From: a virus
Virus genome (UHGV): UHGV-0181887
DNA: 29,701 nucleotides
Direction: 5' to 3' (one strand)
Below are positions 2,933-29,701 of the stretch, piece by piece. The first letter of the stretch is position 1; the number at the start of each line of letters is the position of its first letter. Under the pieces are notes generated by a model. It made no database searches. It was not told where the DNA came from and saw only the letters and a list, made by a program, of their open reading frames with translations. Made by a program: the position numbers and the translations under genes.

Positions 2933-3904
2933 ATGATTCGATCTCTCGTTAAATGGCCTGGTGGTAAAGGTCGCGTTTTACCTGATTTATTGCCGGTATT
3001 GCCGAAAGGTGATTGCCTGGTTGAGCCGTTTGTGGGCGGCGCTTCTGTCTTTCTGAATACCGAGTATCGCCGTTATGTTCTGGGCGACATAAACCCAGAT
3101 TTAATAAACCTTTATCGCCAGGTTGCGCATTTTCCAGATGGCGTCATTGAGGATGCGAAGCGACTGTTTAAAGTCTTTTGCACACCGGATGGGTATGCAG
3201 ATACAAGGGATGATTTTAACTCGCGTCGCCTCTCTCACCTCCCGGCGCAAGATGGCCCCAGCGCGGAGCATATAACCCGCGCAGCGCAATTTCTTTTCCT
3301 CAATCGCCACTGCTATAACGGAATGGTTCGCTACAACCAGAGCGGCGGCTACAACGTCCCTTACGGCAAGCATAAAACCGCGCCTTATTTCCCGGAAGAG
3401 CAGATCCGTTTGTTCTCTGAAAAGGCTAATGACACAAGGGCTATTTTCTTGTGTTGCTCATTTGAAAGCACAATCAGGGTTACTACTGATTGCGCTTCCG
3501 TTATTTATTGTGACCCGCCGTACCTACCAGTAAGCGACACCGCCAACTTCACCGAATATTACAGCGGCCCATTTGGTGAGAAACAACACCGCCAGTTGGT
3601 TGCGGCCCTCGTTGATGCAAACCGCGAGACGGGCGCGTCTGTCGTGATTTCTAACAGTGATACTCCGCTGACCCGCGAGATTTATAAAAACTTCCGCTTC
3701 CAGGAAATTGCCGTTCAGCGTTCGGTAAGTGCCAACACCCTGAAGCGCGAAAAGGCCAAAGAGGTGATCGGCGTTCTCAATGTGTGCGATGGCTGCGGGC
3801 GTGCCGGTGGTGGGCGTTGTCCTGATTGCGGCCCTGCTATGGGTGACGCGACTTACAGTGAAATGTTGGCAACGGCTGCGGCAAATGGCGTGGAGGCTTT
3901 CTGA
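2933..3904 (+). CDS. dam: DNA N6-adenine methyltransferase (Dam-like) with C-terminal Cys4 zinc-ribbon extension
   Basis: Motif I VEPFVGGASVF and motif IV DPPY (VIYCDPPYLP) read directly; C-terminal CDGCGRAGGGRCPDCG; GAGAAAG RBS before ATG 2933. Confidence 0.85.
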   Translation: MIRSLVKWPGGKGRVLPDLLPVLPKGDCLVEPFVGGASVFLNTEYRRYVLGDINPDLINLYRQVAHFPDGVIEDAKRLFKVFCTPDGYADTRDDFNSRRLSHLPAQDGPSAEHITRAAQFLFLNRHCYNGMVRYNQSGGYNVPYGKHKTAPYFPEEQIRLFSEKANDTRAIFLCCSFESTIRVTTDCASVIYCDPPYLPVSDTANFTEYYSGPFGEKQHRQLVAALVDANRETGASVVISNSDTPLTREIYKNFRFQEIAVQRSVSANTLKREKAKEVIGVLNVCDGCGRAGGGRCPDCGPAMGDATYSEMLATAAANGVEAF

Positions 3905-6770: not shown

Positions 6771-6882
6771 AAATATCAACCGCGCGGGCCGTCGCAACTT
6801 GTTGTGATGGTTCGCGTGGTTCTGCGGGTGCGGGCGGCAAAGAGTCCGCAAGGTTTGTTTTTAAAAGCGAGAGGTTAAGAAA

Positions 6883-7098
6883 GTGAAAGCAAGTTATATC
6901 AGTTACTTTGAAGGCTGCAATGCGGCAGGTCATGTTGTTTTTGCTGGTAATGGATCAGCCACGGTTGAGTATGATGATGGTGATTGCGTTGATCCGGGTG
7001 GGTTTCTTGATTCTCATAAGGCCGCGCTTTTGAAGGCGGCCCAGGCGAAAAATCCTGGTGTTGTGTTCGTTTATATTAAGAATATTGTAAGGCTCTAG
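6883..7098 (+). CDS. Small hypothetical protein (71 aa) in accessory island 1
   Basis: GTG start with GAGGT 7 nt upstream; followed immediately by a hairpin terminator; occupies the P2 orf91/tin/old region. Confidence 0.45.
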   Translation: MKASYISYFEGCNAAGHVVFAGNGSATVEYDDGDCVDPGGFLDSHKAALLKAAQAKNPGVVFVYIKNIVRL

Positions 7099-7106
7099 AC
7101 TGCTGC

Positions 7107-7136
7107 AAAGGCCGCCTTGTTGGGCGGCTTTTCTGC
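7107..7136. terminator. Bidirectional intrinsic terminator between convergent genes
   Basis: GCCGCC-TTGTTG-GGCGGC hairpin (7111-7128) followed by TTTTCTGC on the plus strand; A-rich flank gives a weaker T-tail on the minus strand. Confidence 0.6.
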
Positions 7137-7144
7137 AATGGAGG

Positions 7145-7648
7145 TTACTTGTTTTTTTTGAGTGGGTTCTTTTTCCATCGCTTAACTAGCCACTCGAATT
7201 CTTGATAGGTGGTCTCTGAGTTAATGTGCTCTCTGATGGCTTTAATCAGCGGTTCGGCAATATCAAACGTTTCAATTACAGTGCTGTAAGATGTGCGTTT
7301 GATCATCTCTTCGTTATAGATGCCCTCACGAATGCTGACCGCTACTCTTTCGTAAAAATTCAGAATGTACTGAAATTTTCGACGCTCAACCATTTCATCT
7401 TCAGTGATAGCACCGCCATTGCATGGGAAAACATAAGCGCGAAAAGATTTTCCTGAACGATGTACCTGTTTTAAAACGTGGAGCGATTCTAGGTATTGCG
7501 CGTCCTGGCGGCTCTCAAATAAAAAGTTTGCAGTCTGCGTTTTCTTTGCCGTTCGAACGTTGTAGATAATCGTTACGATAGCGGCAACAACACCGAGAAA
7601 AACAACGGCGCTGCTAATGATGGAAAGTGTGTTTGCGTCGAGAGTCAT
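7145..7648 (-). CDS. Membrane-anchored protein of unknown function (N-terminal TM helix, about 135-aa cytoplasmic domain); candidate exclusion/defence gene
   Basis: 167 aa from ATG 7648; hydrophobic segment LSIISSAVVFLGVVAAIVTIIY; visibly AT-richer than flanking phage genes; lies in the P2 tin/old variable locus next to cos. Confidence 0.6.
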   Translation of the reverse strand: MTLDANTLSIISSAVVFLGVVAAIVTIIYNVRTAKKTQTANFLFESRQDAQYLESLHVLKQVHRSGKSFRAYVFPCNGGAITEDEMVERRKFQYILNFYERVAVSIREGIYNEEMIKRTSYSTVIETFDIAEPLIKAIREHINSETTYQEFEWLVKRWKKNPLKKNK

Positions 7649-7660
7649 CAAATTTTATCC

Positions 7661-7688
7661 ATAAAAAAGGCGGGGTAAAATCCCCGCC
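7661..7688 (-). terminator. Intrinsic terminator immediately upstream of the membrane-protein gene (attenuator-like)
   Basis: Minus-strand reading GGCGGGG-AUUUUA-CCCCGCC followed by UUUUUU; sits between the 11-codon leader ORF and the 7648 start codon. Confidence 0.6.
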
Positions 7689-7706
7689 TCGTAGAGGTCA
7701 TGCGGC

Positions 7707-7742
7707 TTAGAAGCCGTCAAATTCATCAAACATATTTTTCAT
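7707..7742 (-). CDS. Putative 11-aa leader peptide MKNMFDEFDGF
   Basis: ATG at 7742 preceded by AGGAGG with a 6-nt spacer (minus strand), stop TAA at 7709-7707, then the terminator 18 nt downstream; coding status unproven. Confidence 0.35.
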   Translation of the reverse strand: MKNMFDEFDGF

Positions 7743-7794
7743 AACCAACCTCCTCAGATTCTGCTGTAACCACGCGCAGTGGTTGTATGTGACA

Positions 7795-7823
7795 AAATTA
7801 CCCCAAACGTAATAGGTAGTCAA
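7795..7823 (-). promoter_or_regulatory. Candidate sigma70 promoter for the leader/membrane-protein unit
   Basis: Minus-strand TTGACT (7823-7818), 17-bp spacer, TAATTT (7800-7795), a weak -10; a 14/16 near-palindrome TGCGCAAATTTGCACA at 7855-7870 lies upstream. Confidence 0.25.
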
Positions 7824-7967
7824 ATAAACGGTCACTTTTTTACCCGCACAATAGTGCGCAAATTTGCACAATAAAATCATTACCGATTTTTGGCGGTAAC
7901 GCCTGTAGTGGTGCTGGTTGGGCGTAGATCTGCAAGTGCACGAAAACACGCGTGATCGTTGCGCGCA

Positions 7968-7986
7968 GGTGACGGGGGGAAAGCCC
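7968..7986. other. Putative cos cohesive-end site
   Basis: GGTGACGGGGGGAAAGCCC resembles the P2/186 19-nt cohesive end as recalled from memory; located between island 1 and portal gene Q as expected for a P2 prophage. Confidence 0.4.
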
Positions 7987-8171
7987 GCGCGGCAGGGTAG
8001 GTAGGGGGATGCCTCAAACATAGGAAAATTGGCGCAATTCTGGCGCGCTGCTGCGTTCTGTGTGTTGTGTGCGGGTAGTGGCGTGTTTAGATGATGAGGT
8101 GCTTAGAATGGCGCTGGCGCGCCGTGTGTTGATGTGATGCGGAGAGCGCCGCCGGGGTGGCGGCGGTGTGG

Positions 8172-9233
8172 TTATTTGATTGATTCAAGCAGGGCGTAAG
8201 GTCTAAAGCGGATCACTTCTTCGCCAAGCCAGTCGTTGACGTGCTTCAGTGCTTCCATTGCTGGCATCAGTTCGTTGATGGCAAACACGCGCGCGGCTTT
8301 CTCCACATCACCGAATGAGCCGTTGCCGTCCGGCATGGCCCCCATCAGTTGCGGTGGTACTCGGTGAGCGGCAAGGATGTCATCACGCGTAGCTGATTTG
8401 ATATTTAAAAACTCATCCTTTGCAGATATCTGGCTGAAGGGCATCAGTTGTACCCCGTCTTTGCCGCCGCCTGGTGCGTGGATCACTACGTTCTTAAATG
8501 CGCCTTTGTTCCTGGCTCCTGCCAGCGTTTGCTGTATCTGTTTTACACCGGCGTCATCTACCTGTGATGTGCCGATGTAAAGAATGCAGCCAGCATGAGA
8601 TCCGTTCTCATAGTACATTTTGCGGAACATATCCGCCGAGTGTGACAGGCTGGCTGACAACAGGGCGCCCATATATTCCGGCATTCCGTAGATTTCCTGA
8701 TGAATATCGGGGTTCAGCACGTGGCAAACTGTGCCGGTTTCAAAGGCGCATTCGTCTTTCCACTGTCTGATAAACCAGTACGTGTCCAGGTCGGTGCCAC
8801 GCCGGGTGTACTTAGCAGGGCAATGGCGAAGCGGTAGCCGCCCGCCTAGCCGGTTCTTTCGTTCTTCAAGGTAGAAGTTGCCAAACACAAACCAGTCAAG
8901 TGCCAGGGCGGAGAACGTCTGGCGAGACAGTAGCGGGTGTGGAATAAAGCATCCCGCCAGCGCGTTGCGCTTGAAGTACAGCGCTGACTGGTGCCAGGAC
9001 GCTTTGCCGAATGAGCGCGCAAGCCCGTACCAGTCCACCGGCGTTTCGTAGTATCTGCCGTTATCGGCGCAATACATATTGTCGAGCAGGTCGTAAGCGT
9101 CAGTGACCTGGTATGGCCCGTCAAAGGTGAAGGCGCTCAGAGCGGGATCGCGCTTCAGCGCTTCGCCAATATCAGCCTGTTGCGCGCCGTCAGTAAGCAT
9201 GGTCATACCGCTTTCATGTGTTGTTGTGTTCAT
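8172..9233 (-). CDS. Q: Portal protein (P2 gpQ-like)
   Basis: 353-aa ORF downstream of and overlapping the terminase gene on the minus strand; size and position match P2 Q. Confidence 0.85.
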   Translation of the reverse strand: MNTTTHESGMTMLTDGAQQADIGEALKRDPALSAFTFDGPYQVTDAYDLLDNMYCADNGRYYETPVDWYGLARSFGKASWHQSALYFKRNALAGCFIPHPLLSRQTFSALALDWFVFGNFYLEERKNRLGGRLPLRHCPAKYTRRGTDLDTYWFIRQWKDECAFETGTVCHVLNPDIHQEIYGMPEYMGALLSASLSHSADMFRKMYYENGSHAGCILYIGTSQVDDAGVKQIQQTLAGARNKGAFKNVVIHAPGGGKDGVQLMPFSQISAKDEFLNIKSATRDDILAAHRVPPQLMGAMPDGNGSFGDVEKAARVFAINELMPAMEALKHVNDWLGEEVIRFRPYALLESIK

Positions 9234-10957: not shown

Positions 10958-11020
10958 GCGGTGTCCTCTCGTTTCGATGGAGAGATTAACCCGCGCGCGT
11001 GGGCTGTTCCCGCTGTTTGG

Positions 11021-11049
11021 GTTGTGGGCCGTCTCTGACAACTAAAACG
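11021..11049. promoter_or_regulatory. Late-promoter activator site (Ogr box TGT-N12-ACA) in the divergent P/O region
   Basis: TGT 11023-11025, 12-nt spacer, ACA 11038-11040; extended element GTTGTG-N5-TCTCTGACAACTAAAACG shared with 28195-28223. Confidence 0.6.
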
Positions 11050-11113
11050 CGTTGAGACAATGACTTAGCAACTGACATCATGGAAAAACAGAAACCAACC
11101 GGCAGGAAAGAAC

Positions 11114-16520: not shown

Positions 16521-17155
16521 ATGCCGGTGATGTTCACGCGCTGGATCAGTATTTCGCAGACATCCTGGCGGGGGCGTCATCCAGTGGGCGGGCCAGAACG
16601 GCGCGCGCCGTGGGTAAGGTTTTACGAATTAGCCAGCAACAGCGCATACGCGCACAGCGCAACCCGGACGGAAGCCAGTACCCGTCACGCCGCCGTAAAA
16701 CGCTGCGCACCCAGCAGGGGATCGCCTTTATCTGGGAAGGGCAGTTGCGCCGGTTGAAAAACTGGCACAGCGGGCGCGGTAAGTACGGGCGGACTATTAC
16801 CGGATTTGATGAAGACCGTAATGAGATCCGCACGTTCTACCGTGCCGATATTGAACGCTATACGGAAATTAATACCCGCGCGGGCCAGCGCTCAAAAGTG
16901 GTCAAGGCACCAATGTTTGTAAAGCTGAGAACCGCCCGCTTTATGAAAGTGAAGTCATCAAGTGAGGGGGCTGAGGTGGGTTACAGCGGTATGGCGGCCC
17001 GTATCGCCCGCATTCATCAGTACGGGTTGCGTGAACAGGTGGGCCCGGGGGCGTTTGCGAAGTATGCGCCGCGTGTCCTGTTGGGGATCTCTAAGGCCGA
17101 TGAAGCGCTGATCCGTAGCGCGGTGATTAACAGCCTGGGGAGTGCCGGGGCATGA
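16517..17155 (+). CDS. S: Tail completion / virion morphogenesis protein (P2 gpS-like)
   Basis: 212-aa ORF coupled to R (ATGA overlap); position as P2 S. Confidence 0.7.
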   Translation: MNAGDVHALDQYFADILAGASSSGRARTARAVGKVLRISQQQRIRAQRNPDGSQYPSRRRKTLRTQQGIAFIWEGQLRRLKNWHSGRGKYGRTITGFDEDRNEIRTFYRADIERYTEINTRAGQRSKVVKAPMFVKLRTARFMKVKSSSEGAEVGYSGMAARIARIHQYGLREQVGPGAFAKYAPRVLLGISKADEALIRSAVINSLGSAGA

Positions 17156-19588: not shown

Positions 19589-20864
19589 ATTCTTTGCCCT
19601 GCTGACTGCTCAGGGGGCGGCAAAATTATCAAATATGGCTGCGCTGGGTGAGAAGTTAGAAATCACCTCGCTCGCAGTTGGCGACGGCGGCGGCAAATCA
19701 CCAACGCCAAACCAGGCACAGACAGCGCTGGTTAACGAGGTGCGCCGCGCCCAGCTTAACTCGCTGTCAGTGGACGATAAAAACGACAGCCAGATTATTG
19801 CGGAGCAGATTATTCCTGAATCCGTTGGCGGGTGGTGGATTCGTGAAATAGGACTCTTTGACGCTGATGGTATCTTGATTGCTGTGGCTAACTGCCCGGA
19901 GACGTACAAGGCCACAACAGAGGAAGGATCAGGCCGTACGCAGGTTATCAGGATGGTGCTCACGGTATCGAGCACTGATGCCGTTACCCTGAAAGTTGAT
20001 CCATCGGTTGTGCTGGCAACCCGGCAGTATGTTGATAGTGCTGTAATTGAGGTGAAAACCTATACAGACAACGCGATAAAAAAGCACGTTGACACCGCTA
20101 ATCCGCATAGCCAGTACCTGTTGATTGAAAATGCTCTTAAAGAATTGATTAAGGCCGGGTTGGTTGGAGAGGCTATCAAAAACCTTGGTTTAGATAAAAC
20201 AGTTCAATTAGCAGCCGATGCGTTACCTGCTTCTGGTGGGAGGGTTACTGGTGATGTGATTGTTGAAGGTATTATCTCAGCAGTCGGACACGAAATGATC
20301 GTGGAAAAAGAGAGTGGTTTTTCAGGTATTCATATCAAAAATAAAAGCAGTGAAAATGGAAGTGCATGTGGTTTGGATTTTTCATTTGGTGGAGCAATTA
20401 TGTCGTCGATTATTTGCGGCATAATGGGAAACGGCGCGAACTATATTGATTTTGCTTTATCTCCATCAGGGGAGATCTCCGATCGTCGAGTTAATGCATT
20501 CACAATGAATGCTGATGTGAAAAAATTGATTTTTCAGAATGATTGGGGCATTCAGGGGTATGTGAAAAATACAGACTTTACTCAGGTAATGGCTGATGCC
20601 GGTTGGGTGCGTTTTCCAAATGGAATAATTTTACAGTGGTGTTGGGGGAATACTGATGGTGGCGGCTGGGCTTCAGCCCCTTTTCCTATTGGTTGGCCTG
20701 TTCGCTGTTTTGGTATCTTGCCATGCAATGTGGCTGGTAATGCAGCAGCGTCGGCGATTGCTGGAGTTAAAAGATTAAGCGATCGAGATATGCAGGTTTC
20801 TTTATTAGAAAGAACAGGCGCCGCTGCGTCAAAACCATTCTTTTGCTTTGGTGTGGGGTGTTAA
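19578..20864 (+). CDS. H: Tail fibre protein (P2 gpH-like N-terminus, divergent AT-rich C-terminal receptor-binding region)
   Basis: 428 aa; conserved N-terminal anchor region; the 3' third (about 20200-20864) is visibly AT-rich; shorter than P2 H (about 669 aa, from memory). Confidence 0.8.
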   Translation: MAAKFFALLTAQGAAKLSNMAALGEKLEITSLAVGDGGGKSPTPNQAQTALVNEVRRAQLNSLSVDDKNDSQIIAEQIIPESVGGWWIREIGLFDADGILIAVANCPETYKATTEEGSGRTQVIRMVLTVSSTDAVTLKVDPSVVLATRQYVDSAVIEVKTYTDNAIKKHVDTANPHSQYLLIENALKELIKAGLVGEAIKNLGLDKTVQLAADALPASGGRVTGDVIVEGIISAVGHEMIVEKESGFSGIHIKNKSSENGSACGLDFSFGGAIMSSIICGIMGNGANYIDFALSPSGEISDRRVNAFTMNADVKKLIFQNDWGIQGYVKNTDFTQVMADAGWVRFPNGIILQWCWGNTDGGGWASAPFPIGWPVRCFGILPCNVAGNAAASAIAGVKRLSDRDMQVSLLERTGAAASKPFFCFGVGC

Positions 20865-20866
20865 TT

Positions 20867-21298
20867 ATGTTTAGTAATATATATTTCAGTGCTAAGAATA
20901 ACTCATTCTTTTTTGAGTCAATGAAATCAGACTATGAAAAAACGAATACTTGGCCTGATGACATTGTTGAAGTTGAATCTGATATTTATCAGAAATACAC
21001 AGGAAGGCCGCCAGAAGGAAAAGGTAGAGGAGGCGACGCTTCCGGTCAGCCTGTATGGGTTGATGTATCAGAGCCTACAGCCGATCAGTTAATTGCGTTA
21101 GCTATACAGCAAAAAAAAGACTTGGCTGAAAATGCAGGTACAGAAATTGCGTGGCGGCAGGATGCGATTGAAGCTGGTATTTCAACCGATGATGAAGTTA
21201 TTCAGCTTGCGAAGTGGAAGAAATATCGGGTGCTATTGATGCGTATTGACACATCAAAAGCCCCCGACATTATCTGGCCTGATATCCCTGAGGATTAA
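20867..21298 (+). CDS. G: Tail fibre assembly chaperone (Tfa, P2 gpG position)
   Basis: 143 aa from ATG 20867, directly after H; AT-rich; the conserved Tfa-like C-terminal half is a family assignment by position and size. Confidence 0.7.
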   Translation: MFSNIYFSAKNNSFFFESMKSDYEKTNTWPDDIVEVESDIYQKYTGRPPEGKGRGGDASGQPVWVDVSEPTADQLIALAIQQKKDLAENAGTEIAWRQDAIEAGISTDDEVIQLAKWKKYRVLLMRIDTSKAPDIIWPDIPED

Positions 21299-22263
21299 TT
21301 TGATAGGCTTTTTAGTCTAAAGTTTGCAATTAAATTATCTTTAATGATATTAGCTATTGAATAGCTAATGCAAATAGTGCATGCGACTGTTGTTATGACT
21401 AACCAATCAGATGCAAATTGTTTTGCAAGCTGAATGGCATAGATTTGTATAAGATATATGTTTTTTGAGTGCTCGCGAATTGTGAAGGTGTTTTTTGTTT
21501 TCAGGGTGATATCTAGCACTTTTAAAAAAACAAAAACACCAGCGAACGGAAGTGAAAAAAGCATATCAAAGGTATATGTGCCATATGAATAATTTACGGA
21601 TGCCTCAATGATGACCAAAATAATGGAACCAATGAGTAAATATGTATTGTTATTTCTTATATTATTTTTATTTATAAGGTATCCAAGCATAAATAATGGA
21701 AAACCCATGAAAAGACCGTTTCTGGAAAAGAAAACTGTAGCGAGAGACCATATATCACGATTTATGTCAATGGCATAATTTGCGCGATATTGAAGTAACG
21801 TGCCGCACGTATAAAGTATGCAGCATATGATTATTGATGTGCGATCTTTTAGCTTAGCTAAAAGTAATGTTAATAATGCCGATACTATCAGGGCAGGGAA
21901 AAACCATAAGTGCCAAAATCCAAATACTGCATTTAGAGATAAATATGTAAGGTCTGTCGCTAAAGGTTTACCCGCCCTAATAAAACCAACTAACCCTAGT
22001 ATTATTGGCAAGTAAAGAAGCGTCCATAGAGCATAGGTTTTTATATTGTGAGAAAACCATTTTTTAATTTTATTTTTTTGCATTACAGAAAAATAAAAAT
22101 ACCCACTAGTAATGAAAAAGAATGGCACTGCAATCCTTAGAAGTCCCTGGCAAGTAACATATCCTATATAATTACTGTTGCCGCCTAAAATGTCTGTGTG
22201 TATAAAAATAATACAAAACGCAAAGAAAAGTTTTGCGTAATCAATTGAGGAAAGGTTTTTCAT
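21295..22263 (-). CDS. Acyltransferase family 3 integral membrane protein (OafA/Oac-like O-acetyltransferase candidate); lysogenic-conversion moron
   Basis: 322-aa polytopic membrane protein with about 10 hydrophobic segments; strongly AT-rich by eye; antisense to the late operon at the P2 Z/fun variable position. Confidence 0.7.
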   Translation of the reverse strand: MKNLSSIDYAKLFFAFCIIFIHTDILGGNSNYIGYVTCQGLLRIAVPFFFITSGYFYFSVMQKNKIKKWFSHNIKTYALWTLLYLPIILGLVGFIRAGKPLATDLTYLSLNAVFGFWHLWFFPALIVSALLTLLLAKLKDRTSIIICCILYTCGTLLQYRANYAIDINRDIWSLATVFFSRNGLFMGFPLFMLGYLINKNNIRNNNTYLLIGSIILVIIEASVNYSYGTYTFDMLFSLPFAGVFVFLKVLDITLKTKNTFTIREHSKNIYLIQIYAIQLAKQFASDWLVITTVACTICISYSIANIIKDNLIANFRLKSLSN

Positions 22264-22388
22264 ATAGAGTCTAGTCGCGCAATTAGGAAGAATGTGGTTA
22301 TTTTACTTACAAAAATTCTAAGGGCAATCATTTAGTCTGCACAATTTACACATAATTGAGCAAAATTAGAGCCAGGTCTCTTGTTGCT

Positions 22389-22424
22389 CCCCTCGGTGAA
22401 AACCAATCCGAGGGGGATATTTTT
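22389..22424 (+). terminator. Intrinsic terminator (plus-strand orientation) at the right end of accessory island 2
   Basis: CCCCTCGG (22389-22396), 11-nt loop, CCGAGGGG (22408-22415), then GATATTTTT; U-tail only on the plus strand, so likely ends the V-G late transcript. Confidence 0.5.
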
Positions 22425-22430
22425 ACTTGT

Positions 22431-22919
22431 TTAAAACAGACTGGATGCGGCAGCGCTGATATTATTCAGCGCTGAGTTGGCTGTGTTTTGTAGGTTGCTG
22501 AGTAAATCACTCACTGATGAAGACTGGAGGCTTTCGCGCAGGTCTTCATCCTGCCTTTGAAACGTGATCGTAAATTCTATTTTCTTCGGCTCCCCATACT
22601 GGTCAAATTCAGTATCGGTTGTCTGAAGCTGCGTTATCGAATACATGCCATATATCCGCCCGGTGCCGCTGATAAGGGGCCAGGGGCGTCCGGTATATGC
22701 CTGTGTATCGAGCACAGTTAGACTCACCTTGCCGCCGGTCACTGAAGGGTACAAAACGCCGGATAGGGTGATTTGATCGTCACCTGCACCAATGTATTGC
22801 CACTTTGCCGATCGGTTTATGCGCTCGTTCTTCACATGCCGCCAGGTCTTTGACTGCTGCAATTGTTGGTGTGGAACGGTTTTTAACTCAAAGACGAACA
22901 TTCCGTAAACCATCATCAT
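22431..22919 (-). CDS. U: Tail protein U (P2 gpU-like)
   Basis: 162 aa; N-terminus MMMVYGMFVFELKTVPHQ resembles P2 U (recalled from memory); follows the tape measure gene. Confidence 0.8.
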   Translation of the reverse strand: MMMVYGMFVFELKTVPHQQLQQSKTWRHVKNERINRSAKWQYIGAGDDQITLSGVLYPSVTGGKVSLTVLDTQAYTGRPWPLISGTGRIYGMYSITQLQTTDTEFDQYGEPKKIEFTITFQRQDEDLRESLQSSSVSDLLSNLQNTANSALNNISAAASSLF

Positions 22920-22931
22920 TTTTTTGCTCTC

Positions 22932-25900
22932 CTAATCTTTGTCTCTGAAACTGCTGCCAGAGCGGGAACGCTTGTTAAGTTCCGCCACAACTGCTTCACC
23001 CACCATCCGTGCAATGTCGCGGGCGTCGTTGCTGAGATTGCCGTGCATATGAATGTGAATATGCATTTCATCAGGCGCGGTGTTTTGCGTCGGTCTGCTG
23101 GCTTGTTTACTGGATTGCCCGCCAATAGCCTGTACTTCAGCCGCCGGTTTAATCGGTGCTGATGCCGCTGTGATAGCGGGGCGTGCGCTAAGTTGGGCCA
23201 GGTTAGCGCCAGGGGTTGATTGTGCTTCCTGCCATGCGCCGTGGACGGCTAAAGCGCGGGGCAGATTTTTAAACACGATATCGCCAGGGCCGATCCGCTT
23301 TTTGGTTTCATCCAGCATCCCGCCGGTGTTGTCGGCAATTTTCTGTAGGCGTCGTTGCGTTCCTGTATCAGCGGCAATCACTGGTGACGGTGGGGCAATA
23401 GGTGGCGCGGTTACCGCTTTCACATCACCGGTGAGCGCGCTAACTTTATCCTGCAGCATAGCCAGTCCTGCCGGTGTTAACTCCTGCTGTATCTTTTGTG
23501 CCTTTGCTCTGGCTGCTTCAATGCCTGAAGGGATTAATCCCAACTTTTCCAGTATCCAGCCAATGCCTTTCATTAACCCCGTTAAGGGCAACATTAACCC
23601 CTGAAGCACCGCACCAAATACGGTGCCGAATCCATACCCGGCAATTTTGCAATCATCCAGCGTCTTTTGTGTTGTTTGCATTGGGCTAATCAGGTTTGTA
23701 AACCACTGCCACACTTGGGCGAGCGCATTTGAAATAACGCCAAATATCGGGGCTAGAGAGGAAAACGCAGTGATTAAAGGGGCGAGGGCATTAACCACAC
23801 CAGTAAAGAATCCCGCAAAGAAGGCTTTGATCGGCTCCCAGTATTTCCAGACCAGTAGACCTACCGCGATAAGCGCCGCGCCAATCAGTCCAATCGGACT
23901 CAGGATAAACGACAGCACACCGCCGAGAGCGGAAATTGCGGTTGTGGCAATGCTCATGATAGTGGGGATGCCGGACAATCTGAGGAGAAGGCCACCAATG
24001 CTCTTAGTTAGCCCACCAATCGCCGCCCCTGGCGACATAAACGCCCCCATCATAATTCCGCGTAACGGCGCAAGAATGCTGGTAAGTTTTCCAGTACTTC
24101 CCGCTATTCCGCCCAAAATTGGGCCCCAGGCCCGCGCGCTGCCAAGCGGCCCGGTAATGGCACCACCAAGACGACTGAATAGAGATAGCGCACCGCCAGC
24201 ACTGCCGGAACTTGTCAGCAGGGTAAAGCCGAGTTGCAGTTTTGCCAGCGGGCCAAGAAGTAAGCCAATAGCCAGAGACGTTGCACCAATCGCGGCGGTG
24301 AGGGCCAGCGCACTGCCGCCAACTACCAGAAGGGTTTTTGATAGCTGCGGATTCTTATTCGCCCATTCCGTCATCACGCCGATCGTACCGGTTAGTGCCT
24401 GGGTGAGTTTTCGCAGTGCGCCGTCCGCCAGTTCTTCAATCTGGATGCGGAACGCTTCCAAGGCGCTATCGAGTTCTTTTAGATCCCCGCCCAGGTTGTC
24501 CGCCATTTTTTTTGCGACGGTGGCGGATTCACCGGCGGCGCCCTGAAGTTCTTTTGTGAGCTTTTGTAGCTCCCCCGAACCTGCCGCCTGTACCAGCGTT
24601 TGAAGGCCCACAAAAGCCTCTTCACCGGCGATGTCCTTGAAGAACGATACCTGATCGACTTCGCCGTATTTTTTCGTGGCCTTGAAAAGGTCTGACAGCA
24701 CGGTTTCCATCGGGCGCATTTTCCCGTTGGCGTCGGCAACTGATACGCCCAACTCTGCCAGGGCTTTAGCCGCGGCTTTTGGCGGTGAGGCTAGGCGGGA
24801 AAGGCTGGAACGCATAGCTGTACCGGCGTCACTGCCGCGCAGACCGTTATTGGCAAGCATACCCGCCATAGCGGATGCCTCTTCCAGGCTAATTCCCAGA
24901 TTAGCCGCCACTGGCCCGGCATATTTCATTGTGTCGCCCAGGGCGCGCAGGTCGGTATTGGTACGGGTAAAAGCGGCGGTTAGCGTATCGCCAACCCTGT
25001 CCATCTGATCTGATGACAGCTTGAATTGCGTCAGGATGTTTGAACCGATATCAGCGGATTCGCCCAGATCCATGCCACCGGCTAACGCCATATTCAGAAC
25101 GCCAGGCAATGCGGCCTGAATTGACTGTGGTGTAAAGCCCGCCATTGCTAAGAAGGCTTGCCCGCTGGCGGCGTCTCGCGTGGTAAATGCGGTTTCAGCA
25201 CCCAGTTTTTTAGCCTGGGCGCGCATAGCGGCAAACTGTTCATCGCCCTTATCCAGGCGAGTCAGTGCACCTACGCGGGACATTTCCTCATCAAAACCAA
25301 CGGCTGGGGCCAGGAAGCGTCCGGCAGCGTAGCCCGCCCCCGCGCTTGCGCCAACAGCCATTGCGCCGCCGGTGCGTAGTTTGCCAGCCGTGGCGCTCAG
25401 ACGGTCATAGCGGGCGCGCGCGTTGGTGACTGCGGCAAGTTGTCGCCGTTCTCTCTCAAGCGTCTGGTTATATTGCTCAGTGCGCCTGATGGCGCTTTGA
25501 ATTGTGCGATCGCCGCCCGCCAGTGAGACACCGTGCGCGCGCAGCGCCTGGGACGCTTGCTGGAGTTTTGCTGTCTCCTGTGACCGGCTGGCATTCAGGC
25601 GATCAAGTTTCGCCGCCAGTGCCGTCATGCGCTCGCGCTGTGCGTCGGTTAGTACGGTGCCGTCCTTCTGGGCTTTGTTCAGGCCGTCAAAGGCGCGCTG
25701 TGTTGTAGTAAGTTGCTGGGCTGTCTTTTTAACGCGCTCATTCAGGCGGTTGAATGCCTGGGATTGCGTTTCCAGATCCTTGATAGAAGATTGTGTTTTT
25801 TTGAGGGATTCAGATAAGCCGCCCACTGAGTTGCGGGCGGCATTTACCGGGCGGGTTAACTTATCAATCGCACTGAAGGCGACACGAATATTAAGGTCTT

Positions 25901-25940
25901 TCATCTTCACTGTTTCCGCTTCGGATAGCCGCCCGCTCAC
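22932..25940 (-). CDS. T: Tail tape measure protein (P2 gpT-like)
   Basis: 1002-aa Ala/Gly-rich protein with coiled-coil N-terminus and hydrophobic glycine-zipper-like central segments; follows E/E'. Confidence 0.9.
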   Translation of the reverse strand: MSGRLSEAETVKMKDLNIRVAFSAIDKLTRPVNAARNSVGGLSESLKKTQSSIKDLETQSQAFNRLNERVKKTAQQLTTTQRAFDGLNKAQKDGTVLTDAQRERMTALAAKLDRLNASRSQETAKLQQASQALRAHGVSLAGGDRTIQSAIRRTEQYNQTLERERRQLAAVTNARARYDRLSATAGKLRTGGAMAVGASAGAGYAAGRFLAPAVGFDEEMSRVGALTRLDKGDEQFAAMRAQAKKLGAETAFTTRDAASGQAFLAMAGFTPQSIQAALPGVLNMALAGGMDLGESADIGSNILTQFKLSSDQMDRVGDTLTAAFTRTNTDLRALGDTMKYAGPVAANLGISLEEASAMAGMLANNGLRGSDAGTAMRSSLSRLASPPKAAAKALAELGVSVADANGKMRPMETVLSDLFKATKKYGEVDQVSFFKDIAGEEAFVGLQTLVQAAGSGELQKLTKELQGAAGESATVAKKMADNLGGDLKELDSALEAFRIQIEELADGALRKLTQALTGTIGVMTEWANKNPQLSKTLLVVGGSALALTAAIGATSLAIGLLLGPLAKLQLGFTLLTSSGSAGGALSLFSRLGGAITGPLGSARAWGPILGGIAGSTGKLTSILAPLRGIMMGAFMSPGAAIGGLTKSIGGLLLRLSGIPTIMSIATTAISALGGVLSFILSPIGLIGAALIAVGLLVWKYWEPIKAFFAGFFTGVVNALAPLITAFSSLAPIFGVISNALAQVWQWFTNLISPMQTTQKTLDDCKIAGYGFGTVFGAVLQGLMLPLTGLMKGIGWILEKLGLIPSGIEAARAKAQKIQQELTPAGLAMLQDKVSALTGDVKAVTAPPIAPPSPVIAADTGTQRRLQKIADNTGGMLDETKKRIGPGDIVFKNLPRALAVHGAWQEAQSTPGANLAQLSARPAITAASAPIKPAAEVQAIGGQSSKQASRPTQNTAPDEMHIHIHMHGNLSNDARDIARMVGEAVVAELNKRSRSGSSFRDKD

Positions 25941-26363
25941 GCCAGGCTATCACCTCACTCAGGGACATAGTGAAAACCTCTGAGGGCGGCCAGTTGAAAA
26001 TAACTGCTATATCAGCAACCAGATCATCGATCAGGTCAAAGTGGGGCGCGTTTACTCGCTCTCCGTCTCCGTCTCGTTCTTCGTGCCAGGCTCCTTCGGC
26101 GCTAAAAAAGGCGTTAGTACCTCGCAAAGTTCAACAAAGTCAGATGTTTCCATTTCACTGATTTCTTTGAGCTTCAGGCGTGGGGAAGTGCAGCGGGTTA
26201 ACAGGGTGCTGATGCTGTCCACGTCCATATTCATAACGTTCACCAGGCGAAGGCCGCGCAGGGAGCCAGCCTGTTTCACTTCGTCAGTGATCGTGATGGT
26301 TTTGATTTCGTTGCCGTCGCGGGAGATCGGGCGGGTCAGTGTTACGGTGTTTTCTTGAGTCAT
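25891..26363 (-). CDS. E+E': Tail assembly chaperone E+E' (product of -1 programmed frameshift)
   Basis: E frame 26363-26052 and overlapping -1 frame ending at 25891; translation across the slip site changes from ...LTPFLAPKEPG to ...LTPFFSAEGAWHEE, matching the track ORF 25891..26127. Confidence 0.7.
26052..26363 (-). CDS. E: Tail assembly chaperone E (P2 gpE-like)
   Basis: 103-aa ORF between the tail tube and tape measure genes; contains the slippery site near its 3' end. Confidence 0.8.
   Translation of the reverse strand: MTQENTVTLTRPISRDGNEIKTITITDEVKQAGSLRGLRLVNVMNMDVDSISTLLTRCTSPRLKLKEISEMETSDFVELCEVLTPFLAPKEPGTKNETETESE
26103..26109 (-). promoter_or_regulatory. Slippery heptamer T_TTT_TTA for -1 ribosomal frameshift (E to E+E')
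   Basis: Minus-strand zero-frame codons CCT TTT TTA GCG; slipping -1 gives TTT TTT AGC GCC, continuing into the E' ORF. Confidence 0.65.
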
Positions 26364-26417
26364 CGTTTTAATCTCCGGGCGGCATCACCACGATGCCGCG
26401 CCTGTAGTGGTTGTTGG

Positions 26418-26930
26418 TTACCCCATGCCCAGCGCGGACATCACGCGGGAAGGGTAAATATTTTCGCCGTTGCGTTTGTACACGAAGTTCAGCAGGTCAA
26501 TTTCCCAGATGGGCTTATCGTCAATTGACAGCTTGTAGTACGTGTTTTTAATGGCGTAGGTGACGGATGTATCTTCGCCCTGTTTGCTTTCGCCGCCGTC
26601 GATTTCGGTGAATTTGCCGCGCATTTCCACGTCAACGATCTGGCTTTCGCCGGATGTGTAATATTCCCCGGTGAATCGGATAAGCGTACCGTCCAGATCG
26701 CCGCCGTATTCCAGTAGCAAAGCCTGAACCAGGCCGCCTACAACCATCGTGGCATCAAGCGCGCCGCTATCCAGTCCGAGATCGACAGCAACAGAGCCAA
26801 TCATCCCGCCGCCCTGATAGTCGTCAGTTTTGCGGGTCAGTTTTGGCAGCGTGACAGATGTCACTTTGCCGATATTGTTCACGCTGTTCACAAAGCAGGT
26901 GAACAGCCGTAGTTTTGGTGGAATCGCCAT
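26418..26930 (-). CDS. FII: Tail tube protein (P2 gpFII-like)
   Basis: 170 aa; N-terminus and internal KLTRK...GGGM...VDLGLD segments resemble P2 FII (recalled from memory). Confidence 0.85.
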   Translation of the reverse strand: MAIPPKLRLFTCFVNSVNNIGKVTSVTLPKLTRKTDDYQGGGMIGSVAVDLGLDSGALDATMVVGGLVQALLLEYGGDLDGTLIRFTGEYYTSGESQIVDVEMRGKFTEIDGGESKQGEDTSVTYAIKNTYYKLSIDDKPIWEIDLLNFVYKRNGENIYPSRVMSALGMG

Positions 26931-28121
26931 TTAGTTACTCCCCAGAGACGAAAACGCGCCTTCAAAATATTCATCGGTGAACGTCTGGATCAGCGTCAAA
27001 TCTTCCATCGGTGGCACTGGCGTGTACTTGTAGCGGATCGCCACTTTGCCCTGAATCAGGTTTGCGGTTCCGTTGTCCACGATGTCAAACCAGGCTTCCG
27101 CGCCAAGCAACTTGCCAGCTGTGACCAGTGCACTGAGTTTCTTGTTAATCGCGCTCACCACGTCTTTCACGTTGGTCGGGGTGAGTGGCCCGTCAATGGT
27201 TTCAAATTGCGCCTCTGCGATGGTGTCCGCCAGGATTTGCGCCGTGCGGGTGTACACCTCAAACACAAATTCATTGGTGTCTGTGGTGCGGTTACCCCAG
27301 AAACGGAAGCCATTACGCTTGATGATGGTGGTGATTTCAGCGTTGTTCAGCGTCTGTGCGTCACTGTCTTCAGCCTGAAGCGCCCAGAAAACATCCTTCG
27401 AAATGCCAAGCACATTGCTGACGGCAATGTTAGATAGCGAGCGGTGCCAGCCGTACTGGTTATCAATAAACGCGCGCAGCCCTACCGCATAGGCCGGGGC
27501 CGGGAATACTTCATTTTCCCCGGACACCTGGTTATATGCGATGTAGTCAGGCCAGATCAGCGTGAGTTCGCGTGATGCGAAGGTTTTACGATACGCGAGG
27601 GCTTCCGCCAGCGTCTTGCAGCCGTTACAGCTTGCATAAACATAGGCGCGAAGCTGTTTGGCGATCACACAAAGCTGTGCCGTCACTTCTTCGGTGTCGT
27701 ATTCAGGAACCGCCAGGATGCGCGGTCGATACTGTGTCTTCTGTTCGGCAGTCAGAAGCGCATACATGCCGGTGTAGTTACCTTCAGCATCAGAGCCACC
27801 GATAATTAGTTGCGCTTGCGTTTTCGCTTCTGCGTCGCCTTCCAGCGGCTTGGCTGCGGCGACACGAACAACAATGACTTTCGCGCTTGCCTGGTCTGAA
27901 ATGGCTTTCAGCGTTTTGTACAGCGTCCCTGTTTTCCCCGCCTTGCCCAGCATCGACTGAGGCCGCGTGATAAGCGTTGGGGTGTTGAGTGGAAATGCGT
28001 CTTCGTCCGCGTCATCAGCGATGACAATTACGCCAATGACGCTGGAGTCAATGTCGTTAATTACCTTCGTGATGTCGGTTTCTTCTTTGGTGCGAGCACC
28101 GTGAAAACGTGTCTCAGACAT
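26931..28121 (-). CDS. FI: Contractile tail sheath protein (P2 gpFI-like)
   Basis: 396 aa from ATG 28121 (GGTGA RBS; track ORF begins 12 nt upstream at 28133); segments RPRILAVPEYDTEEV, IRRNGFRFWGNRT and YKYTPVPPMEDLTL resemble P2 FI. Confidence 0.9.
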   Translation of the reverse strand: MSETRFHGARTKEETDITKVINDIDSSVIGVIVIADDADEDAFPLNTPTLITRPQSMLGKAGKTGTLYKTLKAISDQASAKVIVVRVAAAKPLEGDAEAKTQAQLIIGGSDAEGNYTGMYALLTAEQKTQYRPRILAVPEYDTEEVTAQLCVIAKQLRAYVYASCNGCKTLAEALAYRKTFASRELTLIWPDYIAYNQVSGENEVFPAPAYAVGLRAFIDNQYGWHRSLSNIAVSNVLGISKDVFWALQAEDSDAQTLNNAEITTIIKRNGFRFWGNRTTDTNEFVFEVYTRTAQILADTIAEAQFETIDGPLTPTNVKDVVSAINKKLSALVTAGKLLGAEAWFDIVDNGTANLIQGKVAIRYKYTPVPPMEDLTLIQTFTDEYFEGAFSSLGSN

Positions 28122-28194
28122 GTTTGTCACCATTACGTTTTGTTGAGTTCGCCACCATGATTGCTGATTGACGTAACGGCTTCACGCCTTTCTG

Positions 28195-28223
28195 GTTGTG
28201 CTATCTCTCTGACAACTAAAACG
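28195..28223. promoter_or_regulatory. Late-promoter activator site (Ogr box TGT-N12-ACA) in the divergent FI/D region
   Basis: TGT 28197-28199, 12-nt spacer, ACA 28212-28214; 24 of 29 positions identical to the P/O element at 11021-11049. Confidence 0.6.
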
Positions 28224-28274
28224 AATTCTCCCACGCGCGCTCGCGTGGAATTATTCAGCAAAACGGGAGGGTGT

Positions 28275-29408
28275 ATGAGTGTTTCAGTGATCAGCAGTAT
28301 GATTTCGGGCGCGGCTGGCGGTGTCGATGACATCCTGACGGAGGCGTTAAAAATACCGGCATTCAGCGTCCGGCAGGGCGGAAAGGTGTTAACAGAATTA
28401 TCAGATCGCGTGATATCCATCAGCCTGACGGACAACAGGGGATTTGACGCCGATCAGCTGACATTAGAGCTGGATGATACTGATGGAAGCGTTGCCCTTC
28501 CGCCGCGCGGTGCTGAGTTGTCTTTCTGGCTGGGGTGGATGGGTGAAGCGCTGGTTTATAAGGGCGTGTACACGGTTGATGAAGTCGCGCATGACGGGCC
28601 GCCAGACCGTATCACGGTGACCGCCAGGAGTGCAGATTTCAGAGAAGAGTTTAACGTGAAGCGTGAAGTCTCCTGGCATGATGTGACTGTGGAGCGGGTT
28701 GTGTCCGCTATCGCAAAACGGTATGACCTGACGCCGCAAATCAGCGATCTGTTAATGGATGTGGAAATTGACCACGCCGATCAGACTCAGGAAAGCGATA
28801 TGTCATTTCTGACCAGAATGGCGGAAATGTTAGGGGCCATCGCCACGGTAAAAAATGGCAGTCTGTTATTTATCGTGCCGGGTGGTGGTTTCACAGCATC
28901 AGGGAAGGCTATTCCGTCGATTGCCATCACGCGCAGCAGTGGCGACCGGCACCGCTTCCGCGTTGCTGATCGTGACGCTTATACCGGCGTCCGCGCGTAC
29001 TGGCTTGATCTGAATTACGGGAAAAAGAAAAAGGTCAGTGTCCGCCGCCGAGCCACAACGAAAAAAAAGGATAAGAGCAGCAGCAGGGAAGGTGACTACA
29101 TTGAAGGCGCTGAAGGTAACGTTTTTATTATGCGTAAAACCTTCCAGAACGAAGAGGCCGCCAGGCGCGCAGCGGCGGCGAAGTGGCAGCAGTTACAGCG
29201 CGGCGCGGCGGAGTTTTCGATCACCCTGGCGCGCGGGCGCGCGGAGTTGTACCCGGAAATGCATTCGACGGTAACCGGCTTTAAGGCAGATATTGACGCC
29301 CAGGACTGGATAATCAGTAAGGTACAGCATGATGTTGATAGTAATGGATTCACAACACAGCTTAACTTTGAAGCAAAAATATCTGACTGGATCGCAGAAA
29401 CTGAATAG
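28275..29408 (+). CDS. D: Tail protein D / late control gene D (P2 gpD-like)
   Basis: 377 aa from ATG 28275 (GGGAGG RBS); the track ORF from TTG 28161 would include the promoter element; position next to ogr as in P2. Confidence 0.8.
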   Translation: MSVSVISSMISGAAGGVDDILTEALKIPAFSVRQGGKVLTELSDRVISISLTDNRGFDADQLTLELDDTDGSVALPPRGAELSFWLGWMGEALVYKGVYTVDEVAHDGPPDRITVTARSADFREEFNVKREVSWHDVTVERVVSAIAKRYDLTPQISDLLMDVEIDHADQTQESDMSFLTRMAEMLGAIATVKNGSLLFIVPGGGFTASGKAIPSIAITRSSGDRHRFRVADRDAYTGVRAYWLDLNYGKKKKVSVRRRATTKKKDKSSSREGDYIEGAEGNVFIMRKTFQNEEAARRAAAAKWQQLQRGAAEFSITLARGRAELYPEMHSTVTGFKADIDAQDWIISKVQHDVDSNGFTTQLNFEAKISDWIAETE

Positions 29409-29424
29409 AATGGCGATGAGTTCA

Positions 29425-29446: not shown

Positions 29447-29701
29447 ATGTTCAGATGCCCACATTGCGGCGCTACGGCCCGCACACGTACCAGTAAGCCA
29501 CTAAACGAAGAGCAGACCATCTACCGGCAGTATCACCAGTGCCAGAACATGGAATGCGGATTGTCATTCACCACGCTTAACAGCGTTGAAAAGATAGTCA
29601 CTAAACGTGAGCGCCGCGAAGAGTTATCCCCTGATTTTATCCCTGCCGGTGTTTTTCCTGCCTCGCATTACGGACGCGATCAGCTAAATTTAGCGATATG
29701 A
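29447..29701 (+). CDS. ogr: Late-gene transcription activator, zinc-finger (Ogr/Delta family)
   Basis: 84 aa; Cys4 motif CPHCG...CQNMEC; terminal gene of the prophage, stop at the window end. Confidence 0.85.
   Translation: MFRCPHCGATARTRTSKPLNEEQTIYRQYHQCQNMECGLSFTTLNSVEKIVTKRERREELSPDFIPAGVFPASHYGRDQLNLAI

Follow-up and report, generated by a model that had tools for sequence, protein, structure and literature searches.

The genes for the tail core of the prophage described here, FI-FII-E/E'-T-U, are inverted relative to those of phage P2, and the inversion is old, fixed, and a trait of the lineage. Our reading, to which we assign a probability of about 75%, is that a single ancestral inversion became fixed in the clade and that the spacer between FI and D serves as a bidirectional promoter dependent on the late activator Ogr. 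The window, by which we mean the whole stretch of DNA analyzed (29,701 nucleotides of the UHGV virus genome UHGV-0181887), is a P2-like (Peduoviridae) prophage of a large enterobacterial phage clade. It carries the P2-type tail set V, W, J, I, H, G, FI, FII, E/E', T, U, and D, with Pfam matches for H, G, U, T, E, FII, FI, and D and also for S and V. The ORF layout further includes the P2-type head and packaging region, with Q and P divergent from O, N, M, and L; in a prophage of Escherichia coli ES1 that is 96% identical to the window, the PGAP names for the head genes are portal, large terminase, GPO scaffold, P2-family capsid, gpM, and head completion. A tyrosine integrase, a C repressor, and a gpA rolling-circle initiator are also present (Pfam Phage_integrase, HTH_3, and Phage_GPA), as are an Ogr/Delta zinc-finger gene and, by motif, TGT-N12-ACA dyads in both divergent late spacers. 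The genes around the inverted block are as follows.

20843-21298, plus strand: G (Pfam Caudo_TAP)
22431-22919, minus strand: U, tail protein (Pfam Phage_P2_GpU, 1.8e-39)
22932-25904, minus strand: T, tape measure (Pfam PhageMin_Tail, 3.2e-56)
25891-26109, minus strand: E' extension, read from the sequence; the slippery T TTT TTA (26109-26103) gives the -1 frameshift into it
26052-26363, minus strand: E, tail assembly chaperone (Pfam Phage_TAC_7, 5.8e-09)
26418-26930, minus strand: FII, tail tube (Pfam Phage_tube, 2.3e-44)
26931-28121, minus strand: FI, tail sheath (Pfam sheath domains); the ORF is open to 28133
28275-29408, plus strand: D, baseplate hub (Pfam Phage_GPD); ATG at 28275 after the Shine-Dalgarno sequence GGGAGG
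29383-29411, plus strand: sigma-70-like promoter match CTGACT-17-TAGAAT from a consensus scan, at the end of D and 5' of ogr
29447-29701, plus strand: ogr, late activator with a C4 zinc finger (Pfam Ogr_Delta, 5.4e-16)

In the P2 record, FI-FII-E-T-U-D-ogr all lie on one strand, 3' of G and fun(Z), whereas in the window the minus strand carries U, T, E/E', FII, and FI, and the plus strand carries D and ogr. An earlier note on this DNA had described the FI-to-U block as opposite in strand to P2, with D and ogr set apart from it, and the Pfam identities and strands of the window ORFs bear this out; that D is not co-transcribed with the sheath and tube genes, as was also claimed, is a direct consequence of the strands. 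This layout is a fact of gene order that carries no statistical signal, and chance is not at issue. The start of FI is most likely the ATG at 28121 (MSETRF), which is the start used by PGAP in the ES1 prophage; the spacer therefore runs from 28122 to 28274 and has the length of 153 bp that had been given for it. Since the slippery T TTT TTA opens the -1 frame as far as 25891, E/E' is present, and PGAP places a "GpE family" ORF at the equivalent position in ES1. The reading frame of T extends without a stop to a GTG at 25940, with its ATG at 25904 overlapping the end of E', and the translation of ogr displays a CxxC...CxxxxC pattern.

The gene set itself is shared with P2, where it comprises the F operon (FI-FII-E/E'-T-U-D, driven by pF) and ogr. 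Further likenesses are the -1 frameshift of E/E', an Ogr-type activator, a TGT-N12-ACA type site 5' of FI at an equal distance from the -10, and the position of ogr after D, adjoining the attachment-site end; P2 also has an annotated ogr promoter at the place corresponding to the match at 29383-29411. The window differs in that FI to U are inverted with respect both to V-G and to D-ogr. In P2, U and D overlap and are co-transcribed, whereas in the window they do neither, and D has a Shine-Dalgarno sequence and a predicted promoter of its own. The window also lacks, unlike P2, a gap or a pV-type site between S and V.

A megablast search of the region against the phage collection returned no match, and the relatives were recovered by a protein-level search. 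Among them, the phages P88 (Xuanwuvirus), phiT5282H (Novemvirus), and SEN5 (Senquatrovirus), whose FI proteins are 57 to 75% identical to that of the window, share its layout, with U-T-E-FII-FI on one strand and D followed by ogr diverging from FI; the same layout is found in the ES1 prophage, which resides in a complete chromosome. The inverted order was observed in 133/133 surveyed loci that their sheath protein places in the clade, spanning more than 20 genera of Enterobacterales, while all 31 of the more distant loci surveyed are collinear and P2-like. The survey included 80 IMG/VR loci and 51 loci from species genomes in which FI is at least 56% identical to that of the window, all of them inverted; loci with FI at most 50% identical to the window are all collinear, and so are ENT90 and RE-2010. 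Measured against the window, FI identity is 57 to 92% for clade members and does not exceed 50% for collinear phages. Throughout the clade, D and ogr diverge from FI across a gap of approximately 140 to 200 bp, and FI-U run antiparallel to J-I-H; the window conforms, with D at -146 and J at +10045 on the strand opposite to FI. Serratia phage KSP20 and Citrobacter phage PhiSM are related to the window by FI identity alone (69 to 71%), and a published study relates Serratia prophage PP4 to KSP20, P88, and SEN4. According to published work, P88, which has the inverted layout, is functional, and so are PhiSM and PP4, which probably share it.

These observations bear directly on the age of the event. 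A neighbor-joining tree of FI (numpy implementation) separates inverted from canonical loci exactly, on a single branch of length 0.13, and FI identity falls to 54% within the clade, which indicates that the event is old. Taken together, the clade-wide layout, the single branch in the sheath tree, and the failure to see flanking repeats or an invertase (below) establish an old, fixed inversion. The earlier note had offered two readings, a lineage-specific rearrangement with a rewired late promoter and a recent inversion. The first is supported by the clade-wide layout, its promoter part being a prediction from sequence; the second is refuted by 133 like loci, by isolated phages of three ICTV genera, and by the near-identical E. 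coli prophage. By the note's own account, an orientation common to the whole sub-lineage would refute it and make the layout merely lineage-typical, and all 133 loci have this orientation. The idea that the inversion is recent and confined to this prophage, or is an artifact of assembly, has nothing to recommend it beyond the difference from P2, and a layout recurring in independent loci, in phages of three genera, and in a complete chromosome, together with a spacer architecture kept across the clade, makes it vanishingly improbable.

It is also conceivable that a site-specific invertase flips the block in a programmed manner, as it does the tail-fiber segments of Mu, P1, or P88. A DNA invertase does lie near the tail-fiber genes in P88 and ENT90; hence, such systems occur in the family. 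No invertase was seen, however, among the scanned ORFs of the window (of which the small ones were scanned in part) or in the PGAP annotation of ES1 from cox to ogr. Likewise, a search for short inverted repeats near the breakpoints, which the earlier note had suggested, yielded only weak, scattered pairs at chance level, none pairing the 22.4-kb region with the 28.2-kb region. With 133/133 clade loci in one orientation and a 5.8-kb block made up of essential genes together with a promoter adapted to the present orientation, we regard such a switch as having almost no likelihood. A 13-nt inverted pair at 22416/29371 was rejected as a mark of the U|D junction, being in the wrong place.

How the inversion came about is a more nuanced matter, as the tree of the baseplate protein J does not display the inverted/canonical split. 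This incongruence with the FI tree implies that modules recombine, and thus a strict single in situ inversion is not proven. It would fit an alternative scenario in which the original tail core gave way to a cassette from another contractile-tail element that was inserted in the opposite orientation, and the J proteins of some inverted phages are indeed up to 75% identical to those of collinear phages. Such a replacement appears improbable, though, as the proteins of the block are no more divergent from P2 (FI, 46 to 47%; FII, 45%; U, 47%) than are those outside it (D, 49%; J, 52%; I, 54%; J, I, and U by tblastn), and as FI and D diverge in step towards phiT5282H (75% and 74%, respectively).

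The spacer between FI and D has the following features, with the P/O dyad listed for comparison.

28157-28162, minus strand: AATCAT, the predicted -10 of the late promoter on the FI side; the dyad is 32 nt away
28195-28216, no strand: perfect dyad GTTGT-N12-ACAAC, the predicted shared Ogr site (TGT-N12-ACA at 28197-28214)
28230-28248, no strand: GC-rich palindrome CCCACGCGCGCTCGCGTGG, between the dyad and the D-side -10
28249-28254, plus strand: AATTAT, the predicted -10 of the late promoter on the D side; the dyad is 32 nt away
11021-11042, no strand: second perfect dyad, in the P/O spacer (10958-11113)

The late promoters of P2 are Ogr dependent and have the consensus TGT-N12-ACA (PMC3931495). 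The exact form of this motif occurs three times in the window, with two of the three lying in the two divergent late spacers, and the perfect extended dyad GTTGT-N12-ACAAC occurs twice versus an expectation of 0.02. The FI/D dyad is centered at 28205.5. All four predicted promoters of the window (FI, D, P, and O) have a hexamer resembling a -10 at exactly 32 nt from their dyad, AATCAT and AATTAT being weak matches picked by position; for the mapped starts of P2, the corresponding spacing measures 32 nt (pP) and 33 nt (pF). In its geometry the FI/D spacer fits the P2 pP/pO pair, where a spacer of about 155 bp has the dyad at its middle and starts or -10s placed symmetrically on either side, and for which the P2 record annotates a single activator site; pP and pO were mapped experimentally, whereas the FI/D pair and its starts, which would lie about 55 bp from the dyad center, are predicted. 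Given the rarity and placement of the dyad and a 32-nt geometry matching P2 pP and pF, one activator site probably drives FI to U in one direction and D-ogr in the other.

This architecture is kept in 114 of the 125 unique clade spacers, the other 11 scoring below 8/10 for the dyad. The clade order of elements is a -10, 32 nt, a dyad ending in GACAAC(A/T)AAA, the GC box, a second -10, the Shine-Dalgarno sequence, and D, to which the window conforms. The ACAAC half-site is present in 109/114 of the unique spacers, and the best -10-like hexamer falls at 32 to 33 nt on the FI side in 97/114 and on the D side in 98/114. The left half-site is more variable: in most relatives it reads TCT rather than TGT, and within any one genome it covaries between P/O and FI/D, as GTTGT (window, SEN5), GTCTG (phiT5282H), or GTTCT (P88). 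P88, phiT5282H, and SEN5 resemble the window in spacer architecture and differ from it, SEN5 excepted, in this half-site. The P/O and FI/D dyads of the window share the core GGTTGTG...TCTCTGACAACTAAAACG. Despite these near-identical cores, the notion that one spacer is a duplicate of the other was rejected: the GC box and an ATCATGG-type -10 lie on opposite sides of the core, and the two are thus not simple duplicates. The box is on the D side at FI/D and on the P side at P/O, where both the window and P2 carry CGCGCGCG, which is similar to CCCACGCGCGCTCGCGTGG. As for an orthology in orientation between the P2 pF site and the FI/D site, their similarity is too short to interpret.

An inversion that is real and old might still leave D independent of the shared dyad, transcribed from an Ogr-independent promoter, with the dyad serving FI only. 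The weak D-side -10, the GC-rich palindrome between it and the dyad, which is kept in the clade consensus and could bind another factor, and a sigma-70-like match further downstream, inside D, are all compatible with this. We nevertheless consider it unlikely: a -35-like element is lacking, the 32-nt spacing is equal on both sides and recurs at the mapped pP start of P2, the D-side elements are kept clade-wide at a fixed distance, and P2 itself provides the precedent of one site for pP and pO.

Accounting for the layout by a single ancestral inversion, we propose that in the clade ancestor the FI-FII-E/E'-T-U segment would have been flipped once together with its late promoter and then fixed. 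The outcome would be a pair of late units that converge, plus-strand O...G and minus-strand FI...U, between whose ends cargo could sit, with D and ogr left as a short unit diverging from FI. D would still be expressed late, most likely because the 153-bp spacer acts as a bidirectional Ogr-dependent promoter of the same design as the divergent P/O pair, with starts predicted near 28150 (minus strand, FI) and 28261 (plus strand, D). We infer that Ogr binds the FI/D dyad, to which the covariation of half-sites lends indirect support, and that both promoters are active and Ogr dependent. As the flip would have carried the activator site along and put it directly 5' of D, we lean, at slightly better than even odds, towards the inversion having been tolerated because the Ogr site is palindromic, such that one dyad would fire both ways as a second bidirectional late promoter of the pP/pO type. 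A reshuffling of late tail operons is also known from another P2-like lineage: Stenotrophomonas phage Smp131 has rearranged late operons with TGT-N12-ACA sites kept, one being read both ways for P and O (PMC3931495), although the rearrangement is a different one (V/J operon membership) in a different host group. We found neither a description nor a test of the inverted arrangement, nor any mention of it, in publications on P88, SEN4/5, Serratia PP4, Citrobacter PhiSM, and P2-like phages of Burkholderia or in a survey from 2026 of P2 defense hotspots.

The other end of the block, where U meets G, has features of its own.

21295-22263, minus strand: Acyl_transf_3 acyltransferase (Pfam, 1.1e-19), low-GC cargo at the convergent G/U junction
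22300-22327, minus strand: sigma-70-like match TTGCCC-16-TAAAAT, 5' of the acyltransferase (consensus scan, 9/12; a pattern match only)
22389-22424, plus strand: GC-rich hairpin CCCCTCGG..CCGAGGGG, between the U stop and the acyltransferase promoter match

The convergent G/U junction is a cargo site: it is occupied in P88 by an invertase and alternative fiber genes and in the window by the acyltransferase, and it is empty in phiT5282H and SEN5. Among all surveyed loci, the acyltransferase was seen only in the window and in ES1. Its GC content is 35 to 40% versus approximately 54% for the phage, and it probably serves lysogenic conversion. The earlier suggestion that it is potentially co-transcribed with U may hold. 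The T-run of the hairpin is on the plus strand only, opposite to U (predicted fold, -20.3 kcal/mol on the plus strand and -16.2 kcal/mol on the minus strand), which would favor it; the low GC content, the restriction of the gene to the window and ES1, and the sigma-70-like match of its own speak against it. In relatives, a canonical or bidirectional terminator directly follows U.

For annotation, these results mean that a tail core on the opposite strand is the normal layout of a widespread enterobacterial P2-like clade and gives no ground for calling a prophage recently rearranged, misassembled, or defective. For regulation, the conserved spacer yields a testable prediction, namely one Ogr site for two divergent late promoters (FI-U and D-ogr), such that phages of the clade would run all of their late genes from two bidirectional control regions. 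The question is a small but tidy one in the evolution of phage regulation. If the prediction is true, two activator sites would be all that the clade has for its late genes, since a pV-type site is lacking, and the clade would offer a natural example of how a symmetric activator site lets an operon be split and inverted while co-regulation is kept.

The window comprises a complete P2-like prophage, which belongs to a narrower clade of these phages that includes P88, phiT5282H, and SEN4/5. Its early region also encodes a Dam-type methylase, and the head/packaging genes Q and P lie on the minus strand, divergent from O. Pfam matches identify H and G (Caudo_TAP) in the tail region and the listed genes from the acyltransferase to Ogr.

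Principal features of the window
190-1170, minus strand, integrase (early region)
1313-1606, minus strand, HTH repressor (early region)
4176-6770, plus strand, gpA (early region)
7145-7651, minus strand, DUF4760 protein (gpA-Q gap)
7707-8021, minus strand, 104-aa ORF with no Pfam match (gpA-Q gap)
11114 (O) to 21298 (G), plus strand, late gene run
21295-22263, minus strand, Acyl_transf_3 protein
22431-22919, minus strand, U
22932-25940, minus strand, tape measure
26052-26363, minus strand, E
26418-26930, minus strand, FII
26931-28133, minus strand, FI
28275 (ATG behind GGGAGG) to 29408, plus strand, D
29447-29701, plus strand, Ogr

The head and late gene layout agrees with the PGAP names in the 96%-identical prophage of E. 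coli ES1. On the minus strand, a slippery T TTT TTA at 26109-26103 gives access to the E' frame; this frame runs to 25891 and overlaps the start of T. The most likely FI start is 28121, as chosen by PGAP in ES1 too, and with this start the FI/D spacer is exactly 153 bp. In the P2 record, FI, FII, E, T, U, D, and ogr all share a strand with V-G. The earlier note had described FI through U as inverted relative to P2, with D and ogr diverging from FI, and this description is right in every detail.

The window begins just before int (1-190), stops exactly at the ogr stop codon (29701), and looks cut at the prophage boundaries; the same prophage in E. coli ES1 (L167, 27711-27937) ends beside fieF. 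The gpA-Q gap (6770-8172), the site of old and tin in P2, has a lower GC content (45-47%), and at this position the near-identical ES1 prophage has a DNA adenine methylase gene instead. The gap looks like a variable cargo site.

By sheath protein, the closest isolated phages are phiT5282H (75%), KSP20, Klebsiella 3LV2017-type phages, and P88 (69%). In phiT5282H (Novemvirus), P88 (Xuanwuvirus), and SEN5 (Senquatrovirus; FI 57%), U-T-E-FII-FI lie on one strand with D divergent, and in the first two ogr follows next after D on the D strand. In contrast, the collinear order of P2 is seen in ENT90 (FI 50%) and in the Fels-2-type phage RE-2010 (45%). We surveyed 80 viral contigs plus 80 loci from species genomes, with flanks of 10 kb, placing U, D, and J by local tblastn. 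In every surveyed locus whose FI is at least 56% identical to that of the window, D is read from the other strand and lies 140-850 bp upstream of FI, and J converges on U wherever J falls inside the fetched flank; in every locus with FI identity of 50% or less, U, D, and J are collinear with FI. In total, 133 loci are inverted and 31 are collinear. The inverted hosts include Kluyvera (FI 92%), Enterobacter, Kosakonia, Pantoea, Erwinia, Symbiopectobacterium, Klebsiella, Raoultella, Serratia, Salmonella, Citrobacter, Edwardsiella, Brenneria, Pectobacterium, Xenorhabdus, Photorhabdus, and an Aeromonas MAG. A neighbor-joining tree of 153 unique FI sequences separates the inverted and collinear types exactly, on a branch of length 0.13, and FI identity within the inverted group drops to 54%. 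Since the collinear order occurs throughout Burkholderia, Pseudomonas, Acinetobacter, and the other enterobacterial P2-like phages, it is ancestral, and the inverted one is derived, old, and fixed; P88, PhiSM, and PP4, which have the inverted layout, are viable phages. The suggestion of a recent inversion is therefore refuted by the 133 inverted loci, with one orientation throughout the clade. As the earlier note had itself allowed, the orientation proves common to the whole sub-lineage (these loci plus phiT5282H, P88, and SEN5), and the rearrangement is lineage-typical and already visible in deposited genomes. In the literature on P88, SEN4/5, PP4, PhiSM, Burkholderia P2-like phages, and P2 defense hotspots, we found no comment on it. 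The assembly of Vagococcus sp. WN89Y, labeled as a Firmicute, holds two enterobacterial-type P2-like loci, one inverted and one collinear (L113, L141), which are probably contamination or a mixed culture.

A programmable switch is ruled out because a search for inverted repeats at the block ends found none marking the breakpoints, no invertase was seen in the scanned window ORFs or the retrieved ES1 annotation, and the opposite orientation was found in no surveyed clade member. Alternatively, a foreign tail-core cassette might have replaced the original. Against this, the block genes are no more diverged from P2 (FI 46-47%, FII 45%, U 47%) than those outside it (D 49%, J 52%, I 54%), and toward phiT5282H FI (75%) and D (74%) have diverged in step; this similarity favors an in situ inversion over replacement. 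The J tree lacks the inverted-versus-collinear split, which indicates that module exchange happens in the P2-like family and keeps replacement as a minor rival. Some inverted-type phages have a J protein that shares up to 75% identity with J of collinear phages (surveyed loci L087-L166 and L004-L083), and P2 and RE-2010 are nested among inverted-type sequences in the J tree; hence, the baseplate and tail-core modules have partly different histories.

At the other end of the block, relatives have an intrinsic terminator, often bidirectional, directly after U. The content of the G-U interval varies: phiT5282H and SEN5 have nothing there, and P88 has an invertase together with alternative fiber genes. 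In the window, this junction carries an acyltransferase gene of 35-40% GC, found among all surveyed loci only here and in E. coli ES1; a Kluyvera relative whose U is 99% identical is without it. A hairpin at 22389-22415 has a T-run on the plus strand only, and a TTGCCC-16-TAAAAT match (22327-22300) lies between it and the acyltransferase gene. Given its restricted occurrence, low GC, one-sided T-run, and promoter match, the gene looks like independently transcribed lysogenic-conversion cargo, with some read-through from U into it that may occur. GC also drops from about 54% to 35-41% across 19900-22400, covering the C-terminal half of H (a Gp53-like C-terminal domain), the fiber assembly gene G, and the acyltransferase. 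A single foreign cassette may have brought in the fiber's receptor-binding end together with its chaperone and the surface-modifying enzyme.

P2 late promoters are Ogr dependent and carry TGT-N12-ACA (PMC3931495). In the P2 record, a single activator site is annotated for the divergent pP and pO, whose mapped starts (3016 and 3127) each lie about 55 bp from its center. Only three exact TGT-N12-ACA matches occur in the window, two of them in the divergent late spacers, and the perfect extended dyad GTTGT-N12-ACAAC occurs exactly twice (0.02 expected from shuffles). The P/O and FI/D sites have GGTTGTG...TCTCTGACAACTAAAACG in common. All four predicted promoters have a -10-like hexamer at a distance of exactly 32 nt past the dyad; the equivalent spacing in P2, where starts are mapped, is 32 nt for pP and 33 nt for pF.

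Predicted late promoter elements
11023-11040, TGT-N12-ACA, P/O spacer
28197-28214, TGT-N12-ACA, FI/D spacer
28162-28157, minus strand, predicted FI -10, AATCAT
28249-28254, plus strand, predicted D -10, AATTAT
P side, predicted -10, TAATCT
O side, predicted -10, ACATCA/CATCAT

From this geometry, transcription would be expected to begin at about 28150 on the minus strand and about 28261 on the plus strand. Of the 125 unique FI/D spacers in the clade, 114 carry the dyad at 8/10 or better; of these, 109 keep the ACAAC half, and the best -10-like hexamer falls at 32-33 nt on the D side in 98 and on the FI side in 97. The left half-site differs among genomes (GTTGT in the window and SEN5, GTCTG in phiT5282H, GTTCT in P88), yet the P/O and FI/D sites agree within one genome, as one would expect were both read by that phage's own Ogr. 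From these sequence patterns we infer a second bidirectional Ogr-dependent promoter in the FI/D spacer. The inversion probably carried pF along with the block, and the palindromic activator site probably came to serve D too.

On the D (28230-28248) and P (10990-11003) sides, but not on the FI or O side, a GC-rich near-palindrome conserved in the clade is found between dyad and -10. Its sequence is CCCACGCGCGC..GTGG in the window and, at pP in the P2 record (L003, ~3034-3046), TCGCGGGGCGCGA. Downstream, ogr begins 38 nt past D, and a sigma-70-like match upstream of it (29383-29411) parallels the separate ogr promoter annotated in P2. S and V overlap by 4 nt (17152-17155), as in phiT5282H and P88, and no dyad scoring 9/10 or more was found upstream of V in the window. 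The window seems to lack the pV promoter and the gap in which orf30 lies in P2; in that case, O to G would form a single unit of about 10 kb.

Taken together, the findings support the earlier proposal of a lineage-specific rearrangement with a rewired late promoter, for which a specific predicted model can now be offered; what remains of modest interest is this predicted promoter with its shared dyad.
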